Assembly: GCA_963837945.1 (NCBI GenBank)
Contig: CAWIQD010000009.1
Coordinates: 64,529-128,528, forward strand
Source of the DNA: an uncultured Acidobacteriota bacterium
GTDB taxonomy: Bacteria > Acidobacteriota > Thermoanaerobaculia > Multivoradales > DATKCC01
Direction of reading: 5' to 3'
DNA length: 64,000 nucleotides
Shown: one piece after another, positions 3,129 to 64,000 of the stretch
Layout of the letters: each line of letters begins with the position of its first letter
Numbering within the stretch: the first letter of the stretch is position 1
The notes under the pieces: model-generated
The model's database searches: none
The model's input: the letters and a program-made list of their open reading frames with translations, nothing else
What the model was told of the DNA's origin: nothing
Position numbers and translations under genes: made by a program

Positions 3129-4265
3129 TCACCCTTCGAGAGCTTCCTTGACGTCCTCCTCGTCGATCAGCAGGGCGCCCTGGTTCACCGCGCGCGAGGC
3201 CGCGGGATCGAACTCGTGGTCGCGGATCACCCGCCGGAAGACCTCCTTCAGCGCTCGCGCCCCGAGCCTCGGCTGACGGGCCGCCTGGAGCGCGATCCGG
3301 CGCACCGCCGCCGGCGACAGGGCGAGCCGGATCCCCTGGCTGTCGAAGTACTCCCGCGTCTGGCGCAGGCCCGACTCCGGGCTCTCGAGAAAGATCTTGG
3401 TGAGCTCCTCGACCCCCAGGTCCTCGAGCAGCACCACGGCGTCGAAGCGGGACAGGAACTGCGGCGTCATGCCGTAGTCGAAGAGGTCCTCGTTGCGCAG
3501 CCAGTCGCGCAGCCGGAAGATCTCCTCGCGCCGGACCTTGCCGCCTTCGACCACCGTCACCGGCTGCAGGGCGCCCCGGTCGCGGCCGATGGTCACCCGG
3601 TCGTAGACCGCGTCGTACAGGCCCTCGAAGGCGCCCGCGCAGACGAAGAGCAGGCCGCTCGAGTCGAAGGTGGCGGTGCCGCCGCCCGCCCACGGCGGCA
3701 TCTCGACCTGCACCGCCTCGTTCTCGATCAGGGTGAGCAGGGCCTCCTGGGCGCGGATGCCCTCGACGTTCGGGCGCTCGCCCACGTGGGAGCGGATCTT
3801 GTCCACCTCGTCGACGAAGACGAGAGCGCGCGAGGCGCGGGCGAGAAGCTCCGCCGGCTTGCGGCGCGCCGCCTCGTCCGATCCGAGCTCCTCGCGCACC
3901 CGGTCGAGCAGCCGGTCGACGACCGCCTGCCCGGGTCGCCCCCGCCGCGCCTCCTCGGCCAGCACGTTGGCGTGCAGCCGCACGACCGTCGAGCGGGCCT
4001 CGAGCTCCGGCCGCGAGGCCAGGAGCCGCTCGACCGCGCGCATGAGCGTGGTCTTGCCGGTCCCCGAGGAGCCGATCATCAGGATGTTGCCGGTCGCGAG
4101 GCCCGCCAGGTGCTTGGCGAGCGCGATCGCCATCTCGCGGATCGCCGCCTCCTGCCCGATCACCCGAGAGCGAAGCGCCTCGGCGATCTCCGCCGGTGGA
4201 GGGGTCTTTGGACGAAGAGGGGGTCGAGGTCGTGAGCGGAAGCAAGGTGTCGGAAGCCATCCCAC
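3129..4265 (-). CDS. ClpX/HslU-family AAA+ ATPase (ClpX-like unfoldase lacking the N-terminal zinc-binding domain; IGF docking loop degenerate)
   Basis: VIGQEAAIREMAIALAKH...NILMIGSSGTGKTTLMRAVERLL (Walker A), FVDEVDKI (Walker B), LLFVCAGAF, and C-terminal GARALKEVF sensor region align with ClpX/HslU. No ClpP/HslV gene is adjacent. The region equivalent to the ClpX GIGFG loop reads TIGRDRG. Confidence 0.75.
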   Translation of the reverse strand: MGWLPTPCFRSRPRPPLRPKTPPPAEIAEALRSRVIGQEAAIREMAIALAKHLAGLATGNILMIGSSGTGKTTLMRAVERLLASRPELEARSTVVRLHANVLAEEARRGRPGQAVVDRLLDRVREELGSDEAARRKPAELLARASRALVFVDEVDKIRSHVGERPNVEGIRAQEALLTLIENEAVQVEMPPWAGGGTATFDSSGLLFVCAGAFEGLYDAVYDRVTIGRDRGALQPVTVVEGGKVRREEIFRLRDWLRNEDLFDYGMTPQFLSRFDAVVLLEDLGVEELTKIFLESPESGLRQTREYFDSQGIRLALSPAAVRRIALQAARQPRLGARALKEVFRRVIRDHEFDPAASRAVNQGALLIDEEDVKEALEG

Positions 4266-4267
4266 AT

Positions 4268-4950
4268 TGTAACCGTTCGGTGCCCGCCCACCGATCGCCC
4301 GGCCGAGGCAGAGCTCGGCCCGGGAACCGGGTGCGCGGCCGGAATGGGGTCGCCTCCGGCGGACCGTTCGGTGCCGAGCGCAAGGATCGCCCGGCCGAGG
4401 CAGAGCTCGGCCGCTTCATGGGGGATTGCAGATCGTCACGGGGATCGGACGTCGGGGGGATCGGACGCCGAGGAGTCCGACCCCGCCGATCCATCCCTCC
4501 CCCCTCCGCGGCGGAGCGCACCGCCCCAACCACCGAGGGGCAGCCCGCGGGGCGGGTGGTTTCTCGCCGGCGCAGTTTGCCGCCGAGAAAGCCATCCGCC
4601 CCGCGGGCGTTGGGGTCGCCTCCGGCGGGATGTTCGGTGCTGAATGCCAGGATCGCCCGGCCGAGGCAGAGCTCGGCCCGGGAACCGGGGTGCGCGGCCG
4701 GAATGGGATCGCCTCCGGCGGACCGTTCGGTGCCGAGCGCAAGGGTCGCCCGGCCGAGGCAGAGCTCGGCCGCTTCATGGGGGATTGCAGATCGTCACCG
4801 GGATCGGACGCCGGGGAGTCCGACCCCGCCGATCCACCCCTCCCCTCCCTAGGCCGGGGTCATCGCCCCAATTACCGAGGGGGCAGCCCGCGGGGCGGGT
4901 GGTTTCTCGCCGGCGCAGTTTGCCGCCGAGAAAGCCACCCGCCCCGGGGC
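4268..4950. repeat. REP-like element array including a ~360-bp direct tandem duplication (copy 1 ~4291-4649, copy 2 ~4650-4950); four REP cores total
   Basis: gatcgcccggccgaggcagagctcggcc(cgggaacc|gcttcatggggg) occurs four times. The whole ~360-bp block (two REPs plus a G-rich spacer) is repeated with ~95% identity. Confidence 0.75.
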
Positions 4951-11142: not shown

Positions 11143-11222
11143 CTCGCGCAGAGCCGCAGAGGCGCAGGGGCGCGGCTCTTCCCGTCGGTCGCCCTACTCT
11201 GCGTCTCTGCGCCTCTGCGCGA
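11143..11222. repeat. palindromic element of (g/c)cgcagag heptad repeats (family 2), hairpin-forming
   Basis: tctcgcgcagagccgcagaggcgcag ... ctgcgtctctgcgcctctgcgcgag are inverted arms with a 30-bp spacer. The same arms recur at 60848-61053. Confidence 0.5.
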
Positions 11223-11330
11223 GCACTTCGGATCGTACGGCGCAGGATGAAAGCTTCCGCTACTCGCCGTGCTGCCAGCAGAAGCGCGAGCCCGGCTGCG
11301 CCTCGCGGCCGCAGCGCCGGCCGCTCTTCG

Positions 11331-13868: not shown

Positions 13869-13963
13869 GGGAGCCGTAGTCTACAATGGCGCGCCGTGTC
13901 CCATCGGGTGCCCCTCGCTCCCCTCCCCGCGGCGGGCGACGATTGGTTCTACAATAGCCCGCC

Positions 13964-17417: not shown

Positions 17418-17873
17418 ATGGCCGAGACACCGCAGCAACGCATCGAGTCGGACCTCAGGACCGCGATGAAGGCCCGGCAGAGCGAGCGGGTCGGCAACCT
17501 GCGCATGCTCCTCGCCGAGCTCAAGAACGAGCGGATCCGGCGTGGCCAGGAGGTCGACGAGAGCGGCTTTCTCGCCCTGCTGCGCCGGGGGATCAAGCAG
17601 CGCCAGGAGGCGGCCGAGCAGTTCGAGAAGGGCGCCCGGCCCGAGCAGGCGGCCAAGGAGCGCCGCGAGGCCGCGGAGCTCGAGGCCTACCTGCCCGCCG
17701 CGCCGAGCGACGACGAGATCCGCTCCGCCGTCGAGGCCTTCGTCGCCGAGCACGGCCTCTCGGGCCCCGCGGCGATGGGCCAGGTGATGCCGGCCATGAT
17801 CGAGCGCTTCTCCGGCCGCGCCGACAACGCCGCCCTCAGCCGGATCGCCCGCGACGTCCTGCAGGGGCGATGA
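17418..17873 (+). CDS. GatB/YqeY domain-containing protein
   Basis: RIESDLRTAMKARQSERVGNLRMLLAELKNERI...EAAELEAYLP...HGLSGPAAMGQVMPAMIERFSGRADNAALSRIARDVL matches the YqeY family. Confidence 0.75.
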   Translation: MAETPQQRIESDLRTAMKARQSERVGNLRMLLAELKNERIRRGQEVDESGFLALLRRGIKQRQEAAEQFEKGARPEQAAKERREAAELEAYLPAAPSDDEIRSAVEAFVAEHGLSGPAAMGQVMPAMIERFSGRADNAALSRIARDVLQGR

Positions 17874-19912
17874 GCCCCGCGGCTTCCGATCGCGGGCCGG
17901 CGGCCGGGGGGGCCGGCGAGGCTCCGGACGAGACCGTCCGGCGGGTCGTGGTGGGCACGGCCGGGCACATCGACCACGGCAAGACTCGCTTGGTCCAGGC
18001 CCTGACCGGCATCGACTGCGACCGCTGGGCCGAGGAGAAGGAGCGCGGGATCACCATCGACCTCGGGTTCGCGCACCTCGAGCGCGAGCTCCCCGACGGC
18101 TCGACCCTCCAGATCGGCTTCATCGACGTCCCGGGCCACGAGCGCTTCCTGCGCAACGCGCTCGCCGGGCTGGGGGGCATCCGGGTGATGCTCCTGGTGG
18201 TGGCGGCCGACGAAGGCGTCAAGCCCCAGACCCGGGAGCACCTCGCGATCTGCTCGTTGCTCGGCATCCCGGCCGGCCTGGTCGCCCTCACCAAGGTCGA
18301 CCTGGTCGAGCCCGACCTGGTCGAGCTCGCCCGCATGGAGGTCGAGGAGCTCCTCGAGCCCACACCCTACGCCGGGGCCGAGATCCTGGCCGTGTCGAGC
18401 GTCACCGGCGAGGGGATCGAGCCGCTCGAGCGGGCGCTGGTCGAGCTCGCCGCCGCCCGGGCGCGCAGCCCCGCCGGCGATCCGGCCCTCGCCCTGCCCG
18501 CCCGCCTGCCGATCGACCGCGCCTTCCACCTCAAAGGGCTGGGCGTGGTGGTCACCGGCACGCTCACCAGCGGACGGATCGCGGTGGGCGACAGCCTGGA
18601 GATCCTGCCCGAGCCCGCCACCCTCGCCCGGGTGCGAAGCATCCAGGTCCACGGGCGGGCGAGGAGCGAGGCGTTGGCCGGCGAGCGTTCGGCGCTCCAG
18701 CTCGCCGGCGTGGCGCTCGAGGAGCTCGAGCGCGGCGAGGCAGCGGCGACGCCGGGGCGCTTCGAGGCCACCCGCCGGCTGCTGGCCGAGGTCCGGCTCC
18801 TCCCCGACGCGCCGGAGCCTCTGCGCGGCTTCACGCCCGTGCGCGTCCACCTGCTCTCGAGCGAGGTGGTGGGCAAGCTCCGCCCCCTGCCCCGGGGAGA
18901 CCGCCCGGGCGAGATCGTCCCGGGAGGCTCCGGCCTGGCGGAGGTCCGCCTGAGCGAGCCCCTGGTGGCGATCCGCGGCGACCGGCTGATCCTGCGCCGG
19001 CCGTCGCCCGAGACGACCCTGGGCGGCGGCCGGGTGCTCGATCCGCGGCCGGGCGCCCGGCGGCTGCGCGACCTGGCGGCGGCGGGCGAGGCGCTGCGCA
19101 TGGGTGAGGCCGACGACGGCGAAACGACCGCCGGCGCCCTCCTCCACTGGGCGCGGGAGGCCGGGGCCGCCGGGCTCGCCGCCGAGGAGGCCGCCCGCCG
19201 CCTGGGGGTGGAGCCGGCCGAGGTCGCCCGCCGCCTCGCCGCCCTGGCCGGCGAGCAGAAGCTCCTGGCGGTGCCGGAAGGCGCGGGGGGCGGGAGGACG
19301 CGCCGCTGGATCGCCCCGGCGGCCTACCGCGAGATCGCCGAGCGGGCGGCGAAGACCCTCGCCGCCTACTTCGAGCGCGACCGCCTGGCCCGTGGCGTGC
19401 CCAAGGCCGAGGCGGTGCGCCGGATCCTCCCCGGGCGGGCCGCCGAGCTCGCCGACGTGTACCTCGAGTGGCTGAGGGCCCAGAACGTGCTCGCGGTCGA
19501 CGGCGACCTGGTGACCCTGCCCGGGCGGCAGGCCGAGCTGACCGGCGAGGAATCGAGCCTCGCCCGGTCGGTCGTCGAGCGCTTCGCCGCCGCCGGCCTG
19601 ACCCCGGGCTCCCCCGAGGAGATCGGCCGGCAGATCGGAGCCAAGCCGCAGATCCTCGACGGCGTGGTGCGCTACCTGACCGAGCGGGGCCGGCTGGTCC
19701 GGCTGCCCGGCGGGCTCCTGGTCGCGGCCTCGGCGATCGAGAAACTCCGCGGCGACCTCGAGTCGACCGGCTGGGAGCGGTTCTCCGTGCCCCAGTTCAA
19801 GGACCACTTCGGGCTCAGCCGCAAGTGGGCGATCCCGCTCCTCGAGCACCTCGACTCGACCGGTGCCACCCGGCGCCTGGGCGACGAGCGGATGATCGTC
19901 CGCCGCCGCTGA
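17870..19912 (+). CDS. selB: selenocysteine-specific translation elongation factor SelB
   Basis: GTAGHIDHGKT (G1), DVPGHERF (G3), TKVD (G4) in an EF-Tu-like GTPase. Followed by ~330 aa of winged-helix C-terminal domains ending ...WAIPLLEHLDSTGATRR. ATG overlaps the previous stop (ATGA). Confidence 0.85.
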   Translation: MSPAASDRGPAAGGAGEAPDETVRRVVVGTAGHIDHGKTRLVQALTGIDCDRWAEEKERGITIDLGFAHLERELPDGSTLQIGFIDVPGHERFLRNALAGLGGIRVMLLVVAADEGVKPQTREHLAICSLLGIPAGLVALTKVDLVEPDLVELARMEVEELLEPTPYAGAEILAVSSVTGEGIEPLERALVELAAARARSPAGDPALALPARLPIDRAFHLKGLGVVVTGTLTSGRIAVGDSLEILPEPATLARVRSIQVHGRARSEALAGERSALQLAGVALEELERGEAAATPGRFEATRRLLAEVRLLPDAPEPLRGFTPVRVHLLSSEVVGKLRPLPRGDRPGEIVPGGSGLAEVRLSEPLVAIRGDRLILRRPSPETTLGGGRVLDPRPGARRLRDLAAAGEALRMGEADDGETTAGALLHWAREAGAAGLAAEEAARRLGVEPAEVARRLAALAGEQKLLAVPEGAGGGRTRRWIAPAAYREIAERAAKTLAAYFERDRLARGVPKAEAVRRILPGRAAELADVYLEWLRAQNVLAVDGDLVTLPGRQAELTGEESSLARSVVERFAAAGLTPGSPEEIGRQIGAKPQILDGVVRYLTERGRLVRLPGGLLVAASAIEKLRGDLESTGWERFSVPQFKDHFGLSRKWAIPLLEHLDSTGATRRLGDERMIVRRR

Positions 19913-19920
19913 CCCGCGCC

Positions 19921-20207
19921 CCCCTTCCCCCCCACCCAGGCGCGGGAGGGGGCGTCCCCTTCCCCCGGGGTGGGAAGGGGATCGAGGGGTTGCGGGGGGA
20001 TCGTCGATCGCGTCCCTCCCCTGGGTGGGAAGGGATCGAGGGGGGGGGCATCCTCCCTTCCCCCCCGTGGGGTGGGAAGGGGATCGAGGGGATGCGGGGG
20101 GCATCCGATCGATCGCGTCCCCTTCCCCCCCGTGGGGTGGGAAGGGGATCGAGGGGATGCGGGGGGCATCCGATCGATCGTCGAGGGGATGCGGGGGGCA
20201 TCCGATC
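19921..20207. repeat. tandem direct repeat array (4-5 units of ~60-66 bp), each unit a strong hairpin CCCCTTCCCCCCC-GTG-GGGTGGGAAGGGG plus GGATGC-G6-GCATCC; G-quadruplex-capable
   Basis: Begins 9 bp after the selB stop. Units nearly identical with no unique spacers, so not CRISPR. Four consecutive G-tracts per unit (GGGG T GGG AA GGGG ATCGA GGGG). Confidence 0.65.
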
Positions 20208-20617
20208 AGGCATCGGGATTGCAGGACTCCGCGGTGTCGTACGAAGCGGACGGTCCTCCGGCCGCCCGCCAACTCGAACGGCAATGAGGCTGCGGTAGGA
20301 CAGCTCCTCCCCCGGTACCCAGTCCCCCGCCGGGGCGCTGTCCCCGCAGCCTCCTCTTTGTTTTGGAGCTCGGGACGGGCGCCTTCCCTGCTGCGAGGCG
20401 CGGAGACGCGCCGTCTCGCGCCGTCCTCGCTCTTCGCTCCCTGCGACGTAGCCGCCGACTACGCCTCGGTCGCTCATCTCTGCGGTGGCACGATCCGACA
20501 CCCCTCCGGGCCTCTCGCGACGGGAAGGCGTCCGACCCGAGCTCCGCGCAACCGTTCCGCTTCCTTCGACCTATGGACACCTGATCCGCGCAGGGTGCCG
20601 GGGAGGCCGAGATCGGG

Positions 20618-21059
20618 GTGACGGGGCAGGGTAGGATTGGGGTCGACTTCGGGTTCGACCGTGAAGAAACTGCACTGGAGGCGGGGGTGAAACGAGTCGC
20701 CGTGTTGGGTGCGTCGCCCGACCACAGGAAGTTCGGCAACAAGAGCGTACGGGCGCACGCTCGAGGCGGGGTGGGAGGTCTTCCCCGTCAATCCGAAGGC
20801 CGAGGAGACGGCGGGCCTCGCGGCCTACCGGTCGCTCGCCGAGGTCCCGGTGCCGGTCGAGCGCATCACCGTCTATCTGCCGCCGCCGGTGACCATGAAG
20901 CTGCTGCCGGAGATCGCCGCCGCCGGGGCGCAGGAGGTCTGGTTCAATCCGGGCGCCGCCGACGCCGCCGTGCTCGCGCGCGCCCGAGAGCTCGGCATCC
21001 CGGCGATCGACGGGTGCAGCATCGTCGACCTCGGCCTGTCCCCATCCATGTTTCCCTGA
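20618..21059 (+). CDS. CoA-binding domain protein (YccU-like); apparent 1-nt frameshift near 20745-20755
   Basis: N-terminal KRVAVLGASPDHRKFGNKSVRA in one frame continues as YGRTLEAGWEVFPVNPKAEE...VWFNPGAADAAVLARARELGIPAIDGCSIV in the next frame. Confidence 0.55.
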
Positions 21060-21802: not shown

Positions 21803-21920
21803 GGCCGGGGCCGGGCCGGGGTCGGACTCTTCGGGAGGGGTGGTTGGAGCGTGGCAGTCCTCGGGAGGCGGGAGCGGCGGTCGGAAGGCGGCGGGGATCG
21901 GGGGTCGGGGTCGGTGCCGG

Positions 21921-22170
21921 GGGGCCGAGACGGAGCTCGGCCCGGCAGCTGGGGTGCGAAACGTGGCCGAAGTGTGCCTCCGCAGGAGGGCTCGGTGCGG
22001 GTCATACCGGTCGCCCGGCCGAGGCAGAGCTCGGCCGCTTCATCCGGGATCGCCCTATCGCAACGCTACCCGCGTTGACCGGCAGGGCTCTCCGCCGCCT
22101 GAAGAGTTGTCCCTCCCGCCACGCTACCAACGGTTGAAGCGGCCGAGCTCTGCCTCGGCCGGCCCGACGG
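21921..22170. repeat. REP-like element cluster (two forward cores and one inverted core of GGCCGAG-N6-CTCGGCC)
   Basis: ggccgagacggagctcggcc, cgcccggccgaggcagagctcggccgcttcatccggg, and inverted ttgaagcggccgagctctgcctcggccggcc. Confidence 0.7.
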
Positions 22171-25574: not shown

Positions 25575-25740
25575 ACCTGGGAGATCGCCCGGCCGAGACA
25601 GAGCTCGGCCGCTTCATGGGTTGGGTGCCGAGGCCGACTGGAGGCGGCGAGGGGATGCGGGGGCATCCGGCCCACAGGCACCGTCGGGTGCCCCGCGGCC
25701 CGTTCGCCCGGCCGAGACAGAGCTCGGCCGCTTCATGGGT
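25575..25740. repeat. REP-like element cluster (two forward cores) with embedded GGATGC-G5-GCATCC hairpin
   Basis: gatcgcccggccgagacagagctcggccgcttcatggg twice. Between them cgaggggatgcgggggcatcc, the same hairpin seen in the selB-downstream array. Confidence 0.7.
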
Positions 25741-38992: not shown

Positions 38993-39421
38993 ATGGCCGA
39001 CGAGACCATGGAACCCGCCGCCGGCGAGCGGCGCCACGCGCCGCAGTCGCTGCGCCTGCGATCGATTTCCCCCGCCCTGACCGCCGACGACCTGGAGCGG
39101 AGCCTCCGCTTCTATGTCGACGCGGTCGGGTTCACCGTCGAGGATCGCTGGGAGCAGGACGGCAAGCTCCTGGGCGTGATGCTCGTCGCCGGTGCCTGCC
39201 GCATCGGCCTGTCGCAGGACGACTGGGCCAAGGGGCGGGACCGGACGAAGGGCATCGGCTTCCGGATCTTCGCCGAGACGGCGCAGGACCTCGACGCCCT
39301 CGCCGCCCGCCTGCGCGAGCACGGGGTCGAGCCCGACGGCCCCAAGACCGAGCCCTGGGGCGACCGCACGCTCACCGTCACCGACCCCGACGGCTTCAAG
39401 CTCACCCTGACCGCCGTCTGA
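38993..39421 (+). CDS. VOC (glyoxalase/bleomycin-resistance) family protein
   Basis: LRFYVDAVGFTVEDRWEQDGKLLGVML…FRIFAETAQDLDALAARLREHGVE…DPDGFKLTL. Confidence 0.75.
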   Translation: MADETMEPAAGERRHAPQSLRLRSISPALTADDLERSLRFYVDAVGFTVEDRWEQDGKLLGVMLVAGACRIGLSQDDWAKGRDRTKGIGFRIFAETAQDLDALAARLREHGVEPDGPKTEPWGDRTLTVTDPDGFKLTLTAV

Positions 39422-39583
39422 GTGGTCCGTCAACCTTCAATTGACGGGTCCCGACGGTCCTTCACGCCGCTGGCGGCGTTGCTCCTCCTCGACGTAGGCC
39501 CCGCTACGCCTGCGTCGGAGCGCCTGGCCAGCGACGCGAAATCCTCGCCGGATACCTCTGTCAAATGAAGATTGACGGACCAC
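39422..39583. mobile_element. MITE-like element or paired operator: 12-bp perfect inverted termini GTGGTCCGTCAA (extended ~26 bp, 23/26), each terminus itself containing GTCAA-N7-TTGAC
   Basis: gtggtccgtcaaccttcaattgacgg at 39422 and its inverted copy at 39558-39583. Interior carries a GC hairpin ACGCCGC-TG-GCGGCGT. Starts directly at the VOC stop codon. Confidence 0.4.
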
Positions 39584-39627
39584 TGAGGGCCGCCGGCTCC
39601 GTGGTAGAACCGCTCCGGAGGTGAGCC

Positions 39628-47606: not shown

Positions 47607-49525
47607 TCTACGCAGGTCGCCGGCCCCCGCCGGATCAGCCGTCTCCCGCGCAGCGCAGGAGCAACCGCCGCCGGGCCGCGCGGCGCTCGGCCAGTGACAG
47701 CTGCCGCGCCGCCGAGGCGAGCTCGGGCGCGATCCAGCGCAGATCGAGCTCGGCGTGGCGCTCCACCCGGAAACCGCCTCCCTCGAGGAGGGTCACGGTC
47801 TGCCGAAAGCGGCCGGCGTCGTTGGCCGTCTCGTCGTCGGCCGCCGCGGGAGCGCACCAGGAGGCCGGGGTCTCGAGCTTCCCAGACCGTCGCCCAGCGG
47901 ACCGGCCGGACCGCGAGCGGGCTCTGGAGCCCCTCGAGCTTCGAGGGCTCCGGGAAGGCTTCCGGCGCCGGCAGGGCGAGCGAGCGGACCGACGAGCCTT
48001 CCACCAGCCGCGGAAAGCTGGCGGAAGCCGAGAGCTCGACCATGGGCAGGCCGTCGACGTCGCCCTGGCTCCAGCGGGGCGTCCCCAGCCGGGCGCCGGG
48101 GAGGACGCCGTGGAGGACTTCGGTCGCCACCTCGCCGAGCCGCTCCGGGGTCGCCGAGGCCGTCATCCGGGAAAGGGCCCAGGCTCCCGAGCCGGTCAGC
48201 CGGAGCTCGGCTCGCCCGGCGGCGTCGCCGCTCTCGGAGACCTGCAAGTGCACCGTCAGGCTCCGGGCCTCCCGGCCGGCGAGGACCGGCACCGTCGCGA
48301 GCTCCGAGGCCTCTTTGCGCACCACCAGGGCCCGCTGCCCCTGGAGCGCCGGGTGGAGCCAGGTGAGGCCGCCCATCTCCTGGGTGGGGTCGACGAACAG
48401 GTAGCCGCCGCCGGCGGCGTCGTCCGGCCGCGGCGCCACTTCCGCCGCCGGCACGGCCACGATCAGGTGGTTGAACTGGTCGGCGGCGGGGAAGTCCGCG
48501 TCGATCCCCCGAGCTTCGTCGAGCCGCACCAGCGCCGGGTGGGCCTCGATTCCGGCGTCGGCCAGCAGGTCGACCAGGAGCAGCGCCTTGTCCTTGCAGT
48601 CGCCCCACCGGCGCTCGAGCACCTCGGCCGGCGGCGTCGGCCGGTAGCCGCCGACCCCCATCTCGACCGCCACGTAGCGCACTCGCCGGCGGACGAAGCC
48701 GAGGAGCGCCGCGAGGCGCCCGCGCGGGCTCTCGGCCCCCGCGGCCGCCTCGCGGCCCGCGGAACGCACCGCTCCCGAGCCGCGCGGGACGTCCCGGATC
48801 AGGTGCTCGTACCACCGGCCCACGTCCCCCCAGGTCCGCGCCGTGCCCCAGGCGATGTGCAAGACCGGCTGCGGATCCTCGTCGCGCTCCGGCGGCTCGA
48901 GGCCGGTGGCCGAGAGGGTGAGCCCGCCCGCGCGTTCGGTGACCTCGAAGGGGACCGCCCCGCCCTCCTGGGCGACGGCCGGCGGCGGGTCGATCCGCCA
49001 GCGGAAGCCCTCGCCCGCTCCGCGCACCTCGACCGTCAGGCTCTCCTCCGGCGCGTCACCGGCGAAGAGCGGGACCGTGGCGCTCTCGAGCCACGGCTCC
49101 TCGCGGATCTCGTAGGCGACGTTGAGCACCGAGCCCGCGGGCAGCGGCGGGAAGCGCAGCAGCCGGGCGCGCGCCGAGCTGTGGAGGACGCCCGCGCCGC
49201 CCGCCCCCTCGACGGTCGTGACGTCGTCGGCGCCGAGGACCACCCGCGAGCCGTCGGGCCGGAGCGCCCAGCCCGACGCCGAGACCAGCGTGTCGTTGTC
49301 GTCGAGGGGCACCGGGAAGGGCGACCAGGCATCGAGGTCGCCGGCCTCGTCGAGGCGCACCTGCAAGGCCACGCGCTGGTCGAGGACCCCCGCCGGGTCG
49401 AAGGCGAGAACGATCCGGCGCGCGAGCACCGTGTCGCCCCGCGCCGCGGGCGCCAGGGCCGCCGACAGCGCCAGGACGGCGAGCAGGATCGCCCTAGTCG
49501 TGGAGCAGGAGCAGCTTCTGGCCAT
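47594..49525 (-). CDS. DUF3857 + transglutaminase-like domain protein (paralog 1); C-terminal ~90 codons look like out-of-frame text
   Basis: Signal peptide. RWGDCKDKALLLVDLLADAGIEAHPALV is the transglutaminase-like Cys-protease core. After ...GLLVRS the ORF continues as Arg/Gly/Pro-rich sequence, so a frameshift near 47850 is likely and the true end is uncertain. Confidence 0.6.
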   Translation of the reverse strand: MARSCSCSTTRAILLAVLALSAALAPAARGDTVLARRIVLAFDPAGVLDQRVALQVRLDEAGDLDAWSPFPVPLDDNDTLVSASGWALRPDGSRVVLGADDVTTVEGAGGAGVLHSSARARLLRFPPLPAGSVLNVAYEIREEPWLESATVPLFAGDAPEESLTVEVRGAGEGFRWRIDPPPAVAQEGGAVPFEVTERAGGLTLSATGLEPPERDEDPQPVLHIAWGTARTWGDVGRWYEHLIRDVPRGSGAVRSAGREAAAGAESPRGRLAALLGFVRRRVRYVAVEMGVGGYRPTPPAEVLERRWGDCKDKALLLVDLLADAGIEAHPALVRLDEARGIDADFPAADQFNHLIVAVPAAEVAPRPDDAAGGGYLFVDPTQEMGGLTWLHPALQGQRALVVRKEASELATVPVLAGREARSLTVHLQVSESGDAAGRAELRLTGSGAWALSRMTASATPERLGEVATEVLHGVLPGARLGTPRWSQGDVDGLPMVELSASASFPRLVEGSSVRSLALPAPEAFPEPSKLEGLQSPLAVRPVRWATVWEARDPGLLVRSRGGRRRDGQRRRPLSADRDPPRGRRFPGGAPRRARSALDRARARLGGAAAVTGRAPRGPAAVAPALRGRRLIRRGPATCVEWAS

Positions 49526-59158: not shown

Positions 59159-60794
59159 TCAAACCGCGCCGAACTCCTCGCCGAAGCGCCGCACCGCCTC
59201 GGGCGGGCCACAGACGTAGACCGTGTCGCGGGGCTCGAAGCGGAAGTCGGCGCCGAGGTCGAGGATCAGCTCGTCGTCCCGCTCGACCGCCACGACCGAG
59301 CAGCCGGTGCGCTCGCGGATCCGGAGCTCCGCCGGGTCGTAGCCGGCCAGCCGGCCCTCGGCGCTCGTCTTGAGCACCTTGAGCTGCGGGTCGATCGAGA
59401 TCGCCTCCTCGCGCAGCAGCCGGCGTGCCAGGATCTGTCCGGAGACCTGGCTGATCGAGAGGGCGAAGTCGGCGCCCGCCCGGTGGATCCGCTCGACGTT
59501 CTCGGCACGGTTGACCCGGGCGATCACCGGAACGTCCGGTGCGGCCTCCTTCGCGATCACGGTGGCGAAGAGGGTCGCGGAGTCGGTGTCGAGGGCGAGG
59601 ATCACCCCCTGGGTGCTCTCGCCCAGGAGCTGCTCGACGACGGTCGGATCGAGCATGTCCCCCACCAGGTCGACGCCTTCGCCCTCCTTGCGGTCGACCA
59701 CCACCACGCTCTCGCCGGCGTCGGTCGAGGAGCTCGACGACCTTGCGCCCCACCTCGCCGTGGCCGCCGACCACGAACCGCCCGCGCCGGCGCAGAGGCA
59801 CCGCCCCGCTCACCAGCTCGAGCAGGCGCTCGACGCTCTCGTCGGTGCCGGCGATCACCAGGATCGCCCCCGGCTCGATGCGGGTCGAGGCCGACGGCGG
59901 GGCGTGGAGCACGCCGCCCACCCACTGCCCGATGACCGCCGCGCCGGTGCGGGCACCGATCGCCGCCTCCTCGAGCGTCTGTCCCGCCAGGCTGCTCTCC
60001 GGTTGCACCCGCAGCTGGTGGATCTCGAGCCGGCCGAGGTTCTGGACGCCGGCGACCCGGGGGCTGATCCGAACGCTCGCCCGCGCCGCGAGCGCCGCGC
60101 CCAGGACGTGGCGCGGGGTGAAGACCGCCGTGGCGCCGGCGAGCAGCAGGGGGCGGCGGTGGAGAGGCTCCTCCACCAGTCCCAGGATCTCGCCCGCGAA
60201 CCCGGACTGGCGCGCCGCCAGGATGACCGCCGCGTTGACGTCGTCCGAGCCGTTGGCGATCAAGGCCCGGGCTTGCTCGAGACGGGCGCCCTCGAGGGCG
60301 CCGTCGTCGAGGCGGGAGTGGACCACCCGTCGGCCGCGCTCGGCGAGGCGCCGTGCCACGGCTTCGTCCTCCTCGACCACGACCGTCGCGAGGCCCTCGC
60401 GCTCGGTCTGCTCGACCAGCGTCTCGACCGCCGGGCCGTAACCGTAGACCACCAGGTGGCCGGTGAGCTCCTCGTCGAGCTCCTGGGGCAGGCGGGTTTC
60501 GAAGCGCTCCTCGAGGAAGGGGATGAGGAAGATGGGGATGATCAGGAAGACCAGGAAGACGCCCAAGAACTGGAGCAGGACCACGAACAGCACCATCGTC
60601 GGGCTGTGCCAGGCGGCGTCCGCACCGTAGCCCGTCGTGCTCAGGGTCTCGCCCACGAACTCGAGACTCTGCCAGAAACCCCGGGGGCGGCCCTCGAGCC
60701 AGGCCATGCCCGCCATGTAGGCCAAGCTCGAGACGACCAGCAGGACCGGCAGCGAGGCGAGCAGGGCGAGAAGCCGCCGGCGCGAGGTCCGCAT
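59159..60794 (-). CDS. potassium channel protein with tandem RCK (TrkA-N/TrkA-C) domains; apparent frameshift near 59700
   Basis: Pore region TTGYGD selectivity filter, then TrkA-N (GHLVVYGYGPAVETL), TrkA-C. The second RCK (VVVDRKEGEGVDLVGDML…) is in the adjacent frame (59159-59707 ORF) while the original frame turns Arg/Gly-rich. Confidence 0.6.
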
Positions 60795-60847
60795 CGGCCG
60801 ATTGTACGGCGAGCGGCGTCGTCGCCCCGCCGCGCACGACAGCCGAG

Positions 60848-61053
60848 GCTGGAGAAGTCTCGCGCAGAGCCGCAGAGGCGCAGAGGCGCGGCTCATGTCG
60901 ACGAGGGGGGGGTGATGCCCTCCTCGATCCGATGCGCGCCGAAGCTCGAGAGCCCGCATTGGGCGCTCTACCTAATGCCCTCGTGGCCTGGTCCATGAGC
61001 TGAGGCTGCGCCCATCGATCGCCCTCCTCTGCGGCTCTGCGCCTCTGCGCGAG
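60848..61053. repeat. palindromic heptad-repeat element (family 2) as inverted arms bracketing ~145 bp
   Basis: tctcgcgcagagccgcagaggcgcagaggcgcggctc (60848-60885) and cctctgcggctctgcgcctctgcgcgag (61026-61053). The left arm is 38/40 identical to the copy at 11143. Confidence 0.45.
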
Positions 61054-61111
61054 AATCTACGTGCCGGATCCCGGCGCCTCGTCGCTTTGAGGCGGAGCTT
61101 CACTAGAATCC

Positions 61112-61495
61112 ATGCCGATGGAGGTGCGTCTCGACAAGTGGCTCCAGGTCGCCCGGGTGTTCAAGACCCGGAGCCAGGCGACCCGGGCCTGCACCCTCTC
61201 GCGGGTCAGGGTCAACGGCCAGTCCGCCAAGCCGCACAAGAGCCTGGCGCTGGGCGACCGGATCGAGGTCGAGCAGGGAGACTGGACCCGGACCCTGGTG
61301 GTCCGCGAGCTGCGCGACAAGCCGGTCGCCAAGGCCCTGGCCGCCGAGCTCTACGAGGACCTGAGCCCGCCCCGGCCCCACCTCAGCGAGCTCGAGCGGC
61401 TGATGCGCAAGCCTCCGGAGCGGCGCGAGCGGGGAACCGGGCGGCCGACGAAGAAGGAGCGGCGGGACCTGGAGCGGTGGCGAGACGACCTGTAG
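61112..61495 (+). CDS. hslR: ribosome-associated heat-shock protein Hsp15 (S4-domain RNA-binding)
   Basis: VRLDKWLQVARVFKTRSQATRACTLSRVRVNGQSAKPHKSLALGDRIEV S4 fold. C-terminal …KKERRDLERWRDD as in E. coli HslR. Confidence 0.8.
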   Translation: MPMEVRLDKWLQVARVFKTRSQATRACTLSRVRVNGQSAKPHKSLALGDRIEVEQGDWTRTLVVRELRDKPVAKALAAELYEDLSPPRPHLSELERLMRKPPERRERGTGRPTKKERRDLERWRDDL

Positions 61496-62639
61496 GCCGG
61501 CTCACGCCGCCGAGCAGCTCGCCCCAGGGCTTGAGCGGCTCGACGTGGTCGCAGACGATCTTCACCGTCGCGATCAGCGGCACCGCCAGCAGGGCTCCGA
61601 CGACCCCCCACATCCAGCCCCAGAAGATGATCCCGACGAAGATGATCAGCGGGTTGAGGGTGAGGCGGCGGCCCACGATGGTCGGGGTCACGAACGACCC
61701 CTCGATGGCGGTCAGCGTCAGGTAGAGCGCCGGCGGCGCCAGCGCCGCGCCCACGCTGTCGAAGGTCAGCAGCGCGACCAGGGCGACCACCGAGACCCCG
61801 ACCACGGCGCCGAGGTAGGGCACGAAGTTGAGCAGACCGGCCATGACTCCCCAGAGCACGGGGTTGGGCATGTCCAGCCACCACAGGCCGAGGCCCACCA
61901 GGATCCCGAGGCAGGTGTTGATCAAGGTGATGGTGAACAGGTACATGGAAATGCTGTGCTCGACCCGGCGGGCGATGCTCAGCATTCGCGTGCGGTGCCG
62001 CTGGGTCGGCAAGACGCCCGCCGCCTTGCGCAGGAAGACGTCCCCCGAAGCGAGCAGGAAGTAGAGCAACACGAGCATCACCGCGCCCGCCGAGGCGACG
62101 GTCGCGGTGAAGTCCATCAGGTTGCCCGAGAGCGACTTGCCGGCGACCTCGACCTCGCGCGTCTTCTTGCCGCCGACGTCGGTGATCCGTTCGACCTCCT
62201 GGGTCGCCCGGTTGACCTTGGCCACCGGCTCCTTGATCTGGCGGACCTTCGCCTCGAGCTTGCGCAGGCTCCGCGGCGCCCGGTCCATCCAGTCGGCGGC
62301 GGGAGAGGCGAGGTAGTAGACGCCTCCCCCGACCACCGCGACCAGACCGGCGACCACCACTCCCGCCGCGATCCAGCGCGGCACGTGGAGCCGGCGCAAG
62401 AACCGGACGGCCGGCGCGAGAAGCAGCCCGAGCATGACCGCGAGGACGATCGGCAGCACCACCACCCGGGCCACGTAGAGGGCACCGAGCAGAGCCAGCA
62501 CGAACAGCCCGACGACGGCCGCGCGCGGCACGTCGTAGCGCATCCGACGCCGGCGGCCGCCCGCCGCCTGCGGCGGCGCTTCCGCCGCCGCGGGCTCGAA
62601 CGCCGCGGGATCCGCTTCGCGGTGGAAGGGATGGCTCAT
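61383..62639 (-). CDS. AI-2E family transporter (PerM/UPF0118), copy 1
   Basis: Eight TM segments with conserved …LNFVPYLGAVVGVSVVALVALL… and …VPLIATVKIVCDHVEPL motifs. The predicted 3' end overlaps hslR by 113 bp on the opposite strand, so the C-terminus is uncertain. Confidence 0.6.
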   Translation of the reverse strand: MSHPFHREADPAAFEPAAAEAPPQAAGGRRRRMRYDVPRAAVVGLFVLALLGALYVARVVVLPIVLAVMLGLLLAPAVRFLRRLHVPRWIAAGVVVAGLVAVVGGGVYYLASPAADWMDRAPRSLRKLEAKVRQIKEPVAKVNRATQEVERITDVGGKKTREVEVAGKSLSGNLMDFTATVASAGAVMLVLLYFLLASGDVFLRKAAGVLPTQRHRTRMLSIARRVEHSISMYLFTITLINTCLGILVGLGLWWLDMPNPVLWGVMAGLLNFVPYLGAVVGVSVVALVALLTFDSVGAALAPPALYLTLTAIEGSFVTPTIVGRRLTLNPLIIFVGIIFWGWMWGVVGALLAVPLIATVKIVCDHVEPLKPWGELLGGVSRPTGRLATAPGPAAPSSSAARFPARAAPEACASAARAR

Positions 62640-62664
62640 CTCGCGCCGCCGTCCCTCCCGGCGC

Positions 62665-62829
62665 TCACACCCTCCGCACGAGGTGGAGGATCAGCGAGAT
62701 GATGAAGATCACCAGGAAGATGAAGAAGAGGATCTTGGCGATGCCCGCGGCGGCTCCGGCGACTCCACCGAAGCCGAAGACCGCGGCGATGATGGCGATG
62801 ACCAGGAAAATCAAAGCCCATTGCAACAT
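62665..62829 (-). CDS. DUF1328 (UPF0391) family small membrane protein
   Basis: [50 protein letters not shown] is the family consensus. ATG at 62829 behind AAAGGAGGG. Confidence 0.7.
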
Positions 62830-62985
62830 GCTACTCCCTCCTTTCGGCATTTGGATCTCATGGCATCTGACACTCTCGCAGCCGGAGCCGACATCGATCG
62901 ACCTCGCCAGCTTTGGATCTTGGCTGCGCGATCGCCCGGCACGGCTGCAAGAGGCAGGCCAACCGCGCTCGACGAGACGGCGCGA

Positions 62986-64000
62986 TCAGCTCGGCGAAGC
63001 GCCCGGCGGGGGCTGCGGAGGGGCGGCCACCTCGCCCCGGTAGATCCTCGACGCGCGGTAGCTCTCGAGCCAGTGGCGCAGGAAGACCTGGATCGCCGCC
63101 GCCGCCGGAACGGCGATCAGCATGCCGAAGATCCCGAACAGCGAGCCCCCTACGATGATGGCGAGGAGCACCCATACGGGGTGGAGGTTGACGCTCCGGC
63201 CGAGGATCCGGGGCGACAGGAAGGTCCCCTCGAGGAGCTGCGAGGCGCTGAAGACGGCGAGCACCAGGAGCACCCGCACCCAGCTTCCGTACTCGGCCCA
63301 GCACAGGAGGATCGCGGGCAACAAGCCGACGACCAGCGACATGTAGGGGATCATGTTGGCCAGGCCCGCCACGATCCCGATCACCAGCCCGAGCGGCACG
63401 CCGATCAGCAGCAGCCCGACCGAGTTGATGAAGGCGAGGATCAGCGCGATCGTGAGCTGACCGCGGAGGAAGCTCGCCACCGCCTCGTCCACCTCCCGCA
63501 CGCGCGCGAGCACCACCGCGCGATAGGGCATCGGCACGAGCTCGCGCATGCCCCGCTTGACCTTCGGGAAGTCGACCAGCAGGTAGAAGGCGAAGACCGG
63601 CACGAAGATCAGGTTGAGCAGGAAGAGGATGAAGGCCCCGACGCTGACGAAGATCCGCGACAGCCAGTGCCCCACCGAGGCCGCGAGCTTCGGCAGGTTC
63701 TCGCGCGCGGTCTCCACCGTCCGGTCCCGCATCTCGACGAACTCGGCGGGGTACCGGGCGCGGACCCGCTCGAGCAGGGGCTGGACCTGGTCGCGCAGCC
63801 GGCGGGTGTACTGGGGCAAGCGTTCGGTGAGGCTCTGGAACTCCTGCCCGATGGCCGGCACCAGGTAGAGGAAGAAGCCGGTCAGGGCGAGGACCAGCAC
63901 CAGCGTCATGACGATGACCGCCCAGCCGCGGCTCCACCCGTGGCGCTCGAGCCAGGAGACCACCGGATCGAGCAGGTAGGCGATGCCGAAGCCGACCAGC
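62986..64000 (-). CDS. AI-2E family transporter, copy 2 (N-terminus beyond window end)
   Basis: …GLLNFxPY-like LANMIPYMSLVVGLLPAILL, …VPAAAAIQVFL. ORF remains open at 64000. Confidence 0.65.
   Translation of the reverse strand, partial: LVGFGIAYLLDPVVSWLERHGWSRGWAVIVMTLVLVLALTGFFLYLVPAIGQEFQSLTERLPQYTRRLRDQVQPLLERVRARYPAEFVEMRDRTVETARENLPKLAASVGHWLSRIFVSVGAFILFLLNLIFVPVFAFYLLVDFPKVKRGMRELVPMPYRAVVLARVREVDEAVASFLRGQLTIALILAFINSVGLLLIGVPLGLVIGIVAGLANMIPYMSLVVGLLPAILLCWAEYGSWVRVLLVLAVFSASQLLEGTFLSPRILGRSVNLHPVWVLLAIIVGGSLFGIFGMLIAVPAAAAIQVFLRHWLESYRASRIYRGEVAAPPQPPPGASPS

Follow-up and report, generated by a model that had tools for sequence, protein, structure and literature searches.

Is an array of hairpin-forming repeats that directly follows a gene for the selenocysteine-specific elongation factor a working part of that gene, or does it belong to something else? 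The question is raised by a 64,000-nucleotide stretch of the genome of an uncultured Acidobacteriota bacterium of the class Thermoanaerobaculia (contig CAWIQD010000009.1 of assembly GCA_963837945.1; the whole stretch is hereafter called the window; 72% G+C). In this window, selB occupies positions 17870-19912 of the plus strand (Pfam domains GTP_EFTU, GTP_EFTU_D2, Beta-barrel_SelB, SelB-wing_2 and SelB-wing_3), stops with a TGA codon at 19910-19912 and is followed by a repeat array at 19921-20207. We consider it likely that a dispersed, non-coding repeat specific to a lineage of Thermoanaerobaculia, of which this array is one locus, inserted once at this place and expanded there by slippage or unequal exchange. 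The occurrence of the repeat at more than 100 intergenic sites in related genomes indicates that the array is neither a selB-specific terminator nor an RNA gene.

The array and the repeat family

The repeat unit consists, from 5' to 3', of a pyrimidine arm CCCCTTCCCCCCC, a short loop, a purine arm GGGTGGGAAGGGG, the linker ATCGA, a G-rich mirror block GGGGATGCGGGGGG and a short tail. The two arms pair as hairpin 1, and the mirror block overlaps a second hairpin, GGATGC-G6-GCATCC (hairpin 2). Landmark mapping resolved the array into six pieces: two perfect units of 65 bp, three that have decayed and, at the end, half a unit. A preliminary description of this DNA had placed four to five nearly identical tandem units of about 62 bp after selB; the array and its position stood, the unit length had to be corrected to 65 bp, and the near-identity holds for the two perfect copies, the older units having decayed to about 34, 58 and 41 bp.

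All parts of the array lie on the plus strand. The 8 nt CCCGCGCC at 19913-19920, which separate the array from the selB stop codon, mark a left insertion boundary that is common to the orthologous locus L096. Unit 1 is a remnant (19921-19954) made of the pyrimidine arm CCCCTTCCCCCCC at 19921-19933, without its partner arm, and of GGGAGGGGGCGT at 19943-19954, which is the usual 5' lead-in of the repeat unit. Unit 2 (19955-20012) is partly decayed, with a pyrimidine arm at 19956-19966, a purine arm at 19967-19980, the linker ATCGA and the mirror block GGGGTTGCGGGGGG at 19986-19999; the GCATCC arm of hairpin 2 is gone. Unit 3 (20013-20053, 41 nt) is strongly decayed and reads CCCTCCCC..GGGTGGGAAGGG ATCGA G9 CATCC. 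Unit 4 (20054-20118, 65 nt) is intact, with a pyrimidine arm at 20055-20066, the loop GTG, a purine arm at 20069-20082, the linker ATCGA, the mirror block and hairpin 2 at 20088-20106 and the tail GATCGATCGCG. Unit 5 (20119-20180), delimited by Tandem Repeats Finder and repeat mapping, is intact as well and, from the T at 20118 onwards, reproduces exactly, over its first 55 nt, the family consensus of another species. The half unit TCGAGGGGATGCGGGGGGCATCCGATC at 20181-20207 contains only linker, mirror block and hairpin 2, and is the third exact copy of the 27-nt right half. Tandem Repeats Finder reported a period of 65 with 1.9 copies and 100% matches at 20055-20180, and an additional degenerate array at 19948-20106.

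Both hairpins of the preliminary description were recovered. Hairpin 1, CCCCTTCCCCCCC-GTG-GGGTGGGAAGGGG, is paired at 12 of its 13 positions, the exception being a C.T mismatch, and is intact in units 4 and 5; allowing at most one mismatch, it matched twice in the window, where shuffled sequences gave an expectation of 0. Hairpin 2 occurs in three exact copies in the array and, as had been noticed, once more near 25641-25665, which we located at 25653-25668 with a G5 loop (four matches in the window against 0.08 expected by chance). This last copy belongs to a solo right-hand module, CGAGGGGATGC-G5-GCATCCG (25649-25669, plus strand), adjoining an unrelated REP-like pair (REP, repetitive extragenic palindrome).

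What the preliminary description had missed is that the unit belongs to a genome-wide repeat family, and that a mirror relation between its blocks gives it the layout of the BoxC/PIT/TMECO repeats. We scanned one genome per species for the right-hand module GAGGGGATGCGGGG-N0-5-GCATCC and obtained at least 95 stretches, which among the matches listed came mostly from the long-read metagenome-assembled genome (MAG) CAVUJU01; many of the matches listed were spaced 63-66 bp apart. Single matches of this module in Streptomyces, Microbacterium and others look like chance. Module mapping and Tandem Repeats Finder were then run on 74 fetched blocks (cited with L numbers), in which the family occupies at least 104 sites, counted in one related Thermoanaerobaculia MAG, and variants occur in other relatives too. 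The 53-nt core of the unit stands alone or is repeated head to tail, up to 16 times: 37 sites are solo units, and the arrays have 2-16 units with a period of 63-66 bp, some of them built of the left module alone or of the right module alone. Units within arrays are 97-100% identical to each other. By sequence comparison, the window array is thus a member of this family.

The family is strictly intergenic in the loci compared, as none of 104 sites overlaps a gene called by a likelihood gene caller based on position-specific GC, which reproduced the supplied gene calls when checked on L096 and L099. Read with the G-rich strand forward, 33 sites lie in co-directional sense, 20 in co-directional antisense, 23 in convergent and only 6 in divergent contexts; the units therefore avoid promoter regions, and their orientation preference is only weak. 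The genes that flank the arrays have unrelated, housekeeping functions. Some sequence variation was found within the family. A subfamily, A'B', present in L031, L041 and L093 and as a reverse copy in L101, has CTT/AAG replaced by TCT/AGA on both arms and GGG(T/A)GAGGG as third block, its units reading CCCTCTCCCCCC-GCGA-GGGTGGGAGAGGG-ATCGA-GGG(T/A)GAGGGGGG. In the long-read MAG, the lengths of the C- and G-runs differ among copies, and the mismatch in the stem of hairpin 1 is conserved in position while its base is T, A or C.

The orthologous selB sites differ in their number of units. The proteins nearest to the window SelB come from Thermoanaerobaculia MAGs (orthologues at 86-100% identity), and two such MAGs have contigs that share synteny with segments of the window, at 78-95% nucleotide identity. 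The gene order YqeY-selB-(spacer)-CoA_binding_2-small open reading frame (ORF)-DUF5698/DUF2179 is kept in five relatives; the L102 neighbourhood is without the CoA_binding_2 gene and that of L103 has only PTPS-YqeY-selB in common with the window. In seven distinct relatives (L097/98/104, L099/100, L101, L102, L105/111, L107/108 and L112/113), only 0-31 nt, with no unit, separate the selB stop codon from a sigma54-type element GGCA(T/C)-N5-TTGCA; the SelB orthologues without the unit are 71-86% identical in protein sequence. L096 has one, somewhat decayed unit, which follows the same TGACCCGCGCC as in the window, and the window has about 4.5 units between selB and the sigma54-type element. The comparison of these assemblies thus reveals an insertion polymorphism and a copy-number difference at one site, and the series of 0, 1 and about 4.5 units shows an insertion followed by a minisatellite-like expansion. 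The common left boundary TGACCCGCGCC, together with a 181-bp miniature inverted-repeat transposable element (MITE) downstream that is shared by the window and L096 (96% identity) and lacking in the others, identifies these two as sister lineages, and the insertion after selB was probably ancestral to both. The idea of a recombination hotspot, raised in the preliminary description, fits these counts.

Further sites are filled in relatives and empty in the window: MAG arrays lie upstream of the L031 segment that is syntenic to window 59167-63530. In the selB neighbourhood itself, a family array lies between a 50-amino-acid ORF and DUF5698 at L096:7294-7475, and other arrays or units are found at L097:1-197 and L101:~3790-3850 (minus strand), the window being empty at all these places; the L101 unit is in reverse orientation, downstream of the small RNA region described below. 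A degenerate right-hand module at window 13906-13923 (minus strand), which is syntenic with an exact copy at L079:3598-3618 in the Thermoanaerobaculia MAG CAZIIB01, illustrates how an old solo module decays.

From these observations, we propose that one unit would have entered the gap of 10-30 bp between the selB stop codon and the sigma54-type promoter in a common ancestor with the MAG CAVUJU01, and would then have grown head to tail to about 4.5 units in the window lineage, the most likely cause being slippage during replication, or unequal recombination, in a sequence prone to form structures; elsewhere, units would have colonised new sites. The decay is graded along the window array, from decayed 5' units to perfect 3' units, which fits growth at the 3' end, the oldest 5' units presumably decaying while the 3' units would be held identical to the family consensus. 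Over the 55-nt core, units 4-5 agree with the MAG consensus at every position, although the nucleotide identity of selB between the two is only 87.4%, which points to continuing homogenisation or turnover.

Could the repeated structure nevertheless be an artefact, the array or its copy number resulting from mis-assembled repetitive reads? Two units are 100% identical, the neighbouring CoA-binding gene contains a probable 1-nt indel, which suggests that the assembly is not free of errors, and in the long-read MAG the copies are not uniform in the length of their C- and G-runs. Against this, the graded differences among the window units are not what collapse or expansion would produce, a unit sits at precisely this site in L096, which is an independent assembly, and arrays occur in several independent MAGs and metagenomes, so that we judge an artefact extremely improbable. 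A scan of metagenomes for the junction between the selB end and the array gave no match.

The position of the array, 8 nt past the selB stop codon and in the sense strand, could suggest a cis element specific to selB, such as a multi-hairpin terminator, an RNA-stabilising structure in the 3' untranslated region or a decoy for SelB resembling a selenocysteine insertion sequence (SECIS). The RNA hairpins would indeed be very stable: one unit folded at -42.4 kcal/mol (z = -3.2) into the two hairpins, the reverse strand folding about equally well, and the whole region gave z = -4.2 (ViennaRNA, which considers Watson-Crick and wobble pairs only, so that a triplex lies outside the model). Stabilisation of upstream mRNA is moreover known for REP and BOX elements (PMC3049150). 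We nevertheless regard a selB-specific element as very unlikely. The sequence after hairpin 1 is ATCGAGGGG and that after hairpin 2 is GATCGATCG, so that no unit is followed by a U-tract and the array does not look like a terminator; the sole terminator-like site of the scan, at 20337-20350, lies outside it. Units are found at more than 100 unrelated sites in both orientations, and selB orthologues at 71-86% protein identity do without them. The loops of the array hairpins also do not resemble those of a SECIS such as that of Escherichia coli fdhF. The terminator or insulator of selB envisaged in the preliminary description is thus not supported, the more so as close relatives have no unit and the good terminator of the region (20286-20365) belongs to a small RNA candidate; its structured non-coding RNA fared no better in view of the dispersed sites and the lack of an Rfam match.

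Several other identities were considered and rejected. An intrinsic terminator was discarded for lack of a U-run directly after the array hairpins, and a SECIS-like decoy because the unit is not specific to selB. A CRISPR array, already discounted in the preliminary description, was rejected because the units abut without unique spacers. High-GC ORFs cross the array on both strands, but a coding array was rejected as well: the gene caller calls no gene there, relatives are without the sequence and the period is not a multiple of three. Searches of Rfam 15 gave no match in the window at the gathering score and, for 19800-20800 at E <= 10, only sub-threshold noise resembling miRNA hairpins. A tRNA-Sec gene 3' of selB was likewise rejected, the sole tRNA found by ARAGORN in the window being a tRNA-Leu at 48677-48767.

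The repeat is not always naked. In CAVUJU01, most solo units form the centre of a conserved element of about 262 nt with CTAG at both ends, CTAG-ATGTCTGATCAGGCCAGAATCGTGACGAACGAGCCGAG...(unit)n...CCTCGTCGGTTTGAGGCGGAGCTTCA-CTAG, which has a left arm of about 77 nt and a right arm of about 135 nt; we saw it in L012, L018, L031, L039, L061 and many other loci of this MAG, and one CTAG can be common to two adjoining elements. Units without these arms also occur, and the window array is of this naked kind: a hidden Markov model of the whole element matched the array in its unit part only, and recognised besides only a right-arm fragment at 61056-61109.

This composite gives some weight to another explanation, that the unit or the 262-bp element is a non-autonomous element mobilised by a transposase and the array a by-product. 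The transposase could be a REP-associated tyrosine transposase (RAYT), as for REP/REPIN elements, an IS200/IS605 TnpA reading both hairpins, as for PATE-like elements, or that of an insertion sequence mobilising a MITE. We view such mobilisation, which overlaps with the favoured account, as possible but doubtful. It would agree with the CTAG-bounded elements and their shared CTAG, with the conserved mismatch of variable base in hairpin 1, which recalls the hairpins of Y1 transposases, with the near-identity of sequence across species and with the filled and empty sites of relatives. It agrees poorly with the head-to-tail order of the units, which do not form inverted pairs, with the lack of clear terminal inverted repeats and with the window array, which has neither composite arm. 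In three folded copies of the composite, the left and right arms did not pair consistently, and a MITE with paired arms was rejected on this basis. No target-site duplication is apparent at the selB site. Finally, the eight proteins encoded between oppositely oriented arrays are of housekeeping type (DXP synthase/transketolase-like, DUF455, M20 peptidase, BON, aconitase, BlaR1-like, HD-domain and one unknown) and include no transposase, a genome-wide transposase/RAYT search not having been made.

Folding potential and possible function of the unit

A single-stranded unit can, judging from its sequence, fold in three ways: as two hairpins, as a G-quadruplex (G4) or as a class II purine-motif intrastrand triplex; whether in cells it would adopt either of the last two is a matter of inference. 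The G4-capable tracts of the preliminary description were borne out by prediction, a canonical motif (G3+N1-7 x4) being present in four units on the G strand (19967-19999, 20023-20048, 20069-20101 and 20134-20166) with G4Hunter scores of 2.3-2.4. The array holds 4 of the 8 G-strand G4 motifs of the window, and three of the tracts are tied up in hairpin 1.

The possibility of a triplex comes from the G-rich block of hairpin 2, which mirrors the purine arm of hairpin 1. By inspection, the window-type blocks CCCCTTCCC / GGGAAGGGG / GGGGATGCG, with the third block placed antiparallel to the purine arm, allow G.G-C and A/T.A-T triads at 8 of 9 core positions. In a register test on 303 units, triads were possible at 10 of 12 positions at shift 0 only, where 604 of 681 A positions matched, and at most 287 at any other shift. 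A scan of both window strands (128 kb) for class II triplexes, with 9-nt stems of at most one mismatch each and loops of 3-14 and 3-6 nt, yielded five matches, all of them on the plus strand and within units 2, 4 and 5 of the array. Between subfamilies all three blocks change together, from CTT/AAG/AT to TCT/AGA/TGA; the L070 variant has a perfect third block GGGGTTGGG; and the third block's commonest polymorphism, which replaces A by T (GGGGATGC/GGGGTTGC), is neutral for the triplex and disrupts hairpin 2. These three observations fit a triplex layout, and the hairpin and mirror architecture is conserved across the family in the sequences compared.

We downgraded the mirror covariation as a proof of the triplex. 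The arm GGGAGAGGG is mirror-symmetric and GGGAAGGGG nearly so, and a diverged direct copy of a near-symmetric purine arm would look alike. The strict TMECO pattern, CCCTCNCCC N3-6 GGGNGAGGG N3 GGGNGAGGG, was found neither in the window, on both strands and with strict or relaxed loops, nor, in its strict form, in any of the fetched loci; with loops relaxed to 3-14 and 3-6 nt, the fetched loci gave 21 matches at 13 loci, all of subfamily A'B'. Loop 1 of the 9-nt core is 7-11 nt long, above the ITxF limit of 6. Because the strict pattern is absent, loop 1 is too long and the arms are nearly symmetric, we speak of a BoxC/PIT architecture and do not call the unit a TMECO member.

These structures could matter in two ways. 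First, the array could be an adaptive element in which triplex, G4 or i-motif structures are useful, for instance in transcription-replication encounters, in the insulation of the sigma54 promoter from selB read-through, in setting the distance between enhancer and promoter or in local variability. The G4Hunter scores of 2.3-2.4 per unit, the triplex layout that survives subfamily changes, the A/T polymorphism GGGGATGC/GGGGTTGC that spares the triplex yet breaks hairpin 2, the core identical across species and the contact of the array with a sigma54-type promoter, a type that needs upstream enhancer sites, would all be understandable under this hypothesis. We find it unlikely, however, as the same arrangement of selB and promoter exists without a unit in seven distinct relatives, the copy number varies from 1 to 16 per site with no pattern, the neighbouring genes are functionally unrelated, the 13-bp GC hairpin competes strongly with a G4, and the PIT of E. 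coli has, as far as the work cited in PMC4666352 goes, no promoter or terminator activity, nor a triplex in vivo.

Second, the units could be kept by a triplex or a competing G4 on transiently single-stranded DNA, the structure itself driving amplification and spread through polymerase stalling and template switching, with no transposase involved. This seems improbable to us, but if it were true, the repeat would be a structure-propagated "mobile minisatellite", and the co-ordinated changes of its three blocks would be the first comparative-genomic evidence of bacterial selection for triplex-forming ability.

To return to the favoured account, in which the array is one inserted and expanded locus of a dispersed repeat, several points weigh against it. 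The copy number of about 4.5 in the window is read from the assembled sequence only. The perfect conservation of the core across species that are 13% apart in selB could mean selection for function. Between co-directional genes, sense positions slightly outnumber antisense ones (33 versus 20), which makes a role at the transcript level possible. No target-site duplication was seen at the selB site when empty and filled sites were compared. As for the structural part, the mirror covariation is only weak evidence for triplex selection for the reason given above, and Holder et al. (2015; PMC4666352) detected no stable triplex of the corresponding E. coli repeat, either in vivo or in double-stranded DNA.

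On balance, the array most likely has no dedicated selB function and is, most likely, selfish or neutral, minisatellite-like, structure-prone DNA that is tolerated downstream of genes. This lack of function is what we infer; if the array does affect the stability of selB mRNA or the neighbouring promoter, it would do so incidentally. An annotation should name the array as a member of a repeat family and not as a selB terminator or RNA gene. Programs that call ORFs, find CRISPR or tandem repeats, or assemble reads will be misled by the several hundred such units per genome in Thermoanaerobaculia MAGs. The family also provides a natural series of 1-16 tandem copies of a sequence capable of forming two hairpins, a G4 or a triplex of BoxC type, its subfamilies that change all three blocks make selection on a PIT/BoxC structure testable by comparison and biophysics, and the copy-number differences among close relatives could serve as strain markers.

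The region after the array and other elements of the window

The approximately 400 bp after the array, which the preliminary description had left without a gene, are not empty: they hold a sigma54-type promoter element, a structured RNA region and a MITE, none of which is part of the repeat. The sigma54-type -24/-12 element GGCAT-CGGGA-TTGCA (20209-20223, plus strand), with the spacing GG-N10-GC, abuts the array. It is kept, with a variable N5, in L096, L097, L099, L101, L102 and, among the ten metagenome contigs L104-L113, in nine, whose -24 element is GGCAT or GGCAC; L106 ends before the promoter position. Its agreement with the consensus suggests that it may function as a sigma54 promoter.

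It is followed by a conserved structured region of about 140 nt (20225-20365, plus strand; fold z = -3.4), with a stem-loop 1 carrying a CUCC loop, a long hairpin at 20286-20353 and a T-run; its C-rich loops are CUCC and CCCAGUCCCCCG. RNAalifold on six species predicted 40 pairs, 6 of them with compensatory changes, and ten additional copies came from metagenomes. No Rfam family matched this region, at the gathering threshold or at E <= 10. It is a candidate for a sigma54-dependent small RNA with an intrinsic terminator, the only good terminator of the whole region (20286-20365) being located in this separately promoted candidate. In relatives, the promoter and the RNA-like region are found at L096:6118-6272, L097:6072-6224, L099:3041-3194, L101:3511-3666, L102:3580-3726 and in L104-L113, mostly 0-31 nt past the selB stop codon, and in L109 and L110 after another gene. 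The promoter and its small structured RNA may well be the more interesting biology of this intergenic region.

The MITE-like insertion mentioned above (20366-20546, 181 bp) is evident in the sequence from its perfect 24-nt terminal inverted repeats GGAGCTCGGGACGGGCGCCTTCCC. Its 96% identical copy occupies the same place in L096; it is absent from L097 and L099, and no other copy was found in the fetched loci. Next comes the CoA_binding_2 gene (20687-21059), which is in two reading frames through a 1-nt insertion near 20764 relative to L096 (window CACGCTCGAGGCGG, L096 CACGTCCG-GGCGG). It is either a pseudogene or the product of an assembly indel, and in the latter case the homopolymer lengths in the array would be suspect too.

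Other small elements are scattered over the window. A separate, classical REP-like family (CCCGGCCGAGRCNGAGCTCGGCCG; GATCGCCCGGCCGAGRCNGAGCTCGGCCG...) has ten copies, often paired about 57-120 bp apart, at 2886-2981, 4293-4423, 4651-4782, 21915-22047 and 25583-25740; one such pair brackets the solo right-hand module at 25649-25669. A 164-bp MITE at 39421-39584, with terminal inverted repeats GTGGTCCGTCAA...TTGACGGACCAC, had 30 matches in 26 fetched loci and is up to 99% identical to copies in CAVUJU01, in genomes about 13% apart in their genes, which suggests that it was recently active or exchanged. Two further elements, at 60811-61114 and 11143-11225, have long inverted ends of GCGCAGAG-type octamer repeats. 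The former lies within a stretch of about 305 bp where the syntenic MAG locus L031 has 36 bp, and it ends in a 50-nt right-arm fragment of the 262-nt composite (61056-61109), 5 nt before the ATG of an S4-domain-like gene.

Comparison with known repeat systems

The closest resemblance of the Thermoanaerobaculia repeat is to the BoxC repeat of E. coli, also known as PIT (potential intrastrand triplex) or TMECO, CCCTCNCCC-N3-6-GGGNGAGGG-N3-GGGNGAGGG, a class II purine-motif intrastrand triplex that is always intergenic, shows no strand bias and is associated with loci of local instability (Holder et al., 2015; PMC4666352). Its isolated single strand forms the triplex in vitro (PMC4666352). As cited in the same paper, these E. 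coli repeats were also treated by Hoyne et al. (2000), and Maher and colleagues attributed neither promoter nor terminator activity to PIT. Both repeats are short, G/C-rich, dispersed and strictly intergenic; both have the block order of pyrimidine, purine and mirror G-rich block of a class II purine motif; and both lack a strand preference and a link to gene function and occupy variable loci. The A'B' subfamily of the related MAG even has the same three 9-mers as TMECO, CCCTCTCCC / GGGAGAGGG / GGGTGAGGG, including the CCCTCGCCC mismatch variant found in E. coli. By contrast, the CCCCTTCCC / GGGAAGGGG / GGGGATGCG of the window unit fails the TMECO pattern, its stems are longer (13 nt with a mismatch), loop 2 has 5 nt instead of 3, and the second hairpin GGATGC/GCATCC overlaps the third block. 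The head-to-tail arrays of up to 16 units also differ from the single copies or inverted pairs of E. coli BoxC. The two repeats belong to different phyla, and their likeness could reflect either homology or convergence.

A second point of comparison is the pneumococcal BOX element, boxA-(boxB)n-boxC (Croucher et al., 2011; PMC3049150). It is, like our repeat, a modular dispersed intergenic repeat with an internal module in variable tandem number, strong folding and an enrichment downstream of genes, and it is regarded as non-autonomous or parasitic, a view that we take of the Thermoanaerobaculia repeat as well. The resemblance extends to CAVUJU01, where the unit is the variable middle of the element of about 262 nt, left arm-(unit)n-right arm. 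However, the sequences are unrelated, the composite arms do not pair, the host is GC-rich (72%) and the window array is without any end modules.

The tandem organisation recalls the mycobacterial interspersed repetitive units (MIRU-VNTR; variable-number tandem repeats) of Supply et al. (1997/2000), reportedly direct repeats of 40-100 bp in tandem that are scattered over many intergenic loci in a GC-rich genome, and said to lie within operons, with short ORFs overlapping the flanking genes. Common to both are direct repeats at many dispersed intergenic loci and copy numbers that differ between relatives. The Thermoanaerobaculia period of 63-66 bp is, in contrast, not consistently a multiple of three, the units contain no ORF, and they are strongly palindromic and occur in both orientations. 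REP sequences and their bacterial interspersed mosaic elements (BIMEs) are also extragenic imperfect palindromes, mostly downstream of genes, conserved within lineages and often clustered, but within their clusters the orientation alternates, and a RAYT gene goes with them, whereas the clusters described here are direct repeats and no RAYT was seen in a limited search.

The dispersed intergenic repeat, the BoxC-type triplex motif, the modular BOX element and the MIRU-type minisatellite are each known already. A full-text literature search returned no paper on intergenic repeats of Thermoanaerobaculia. What appears to be new is their combination, namely a BoxC-like three-block unit with an overlapping second hairpin, amplified in direct arrays of up to 16 units, at more than 100 sites per genome, in an uncultured acidobacterial class.

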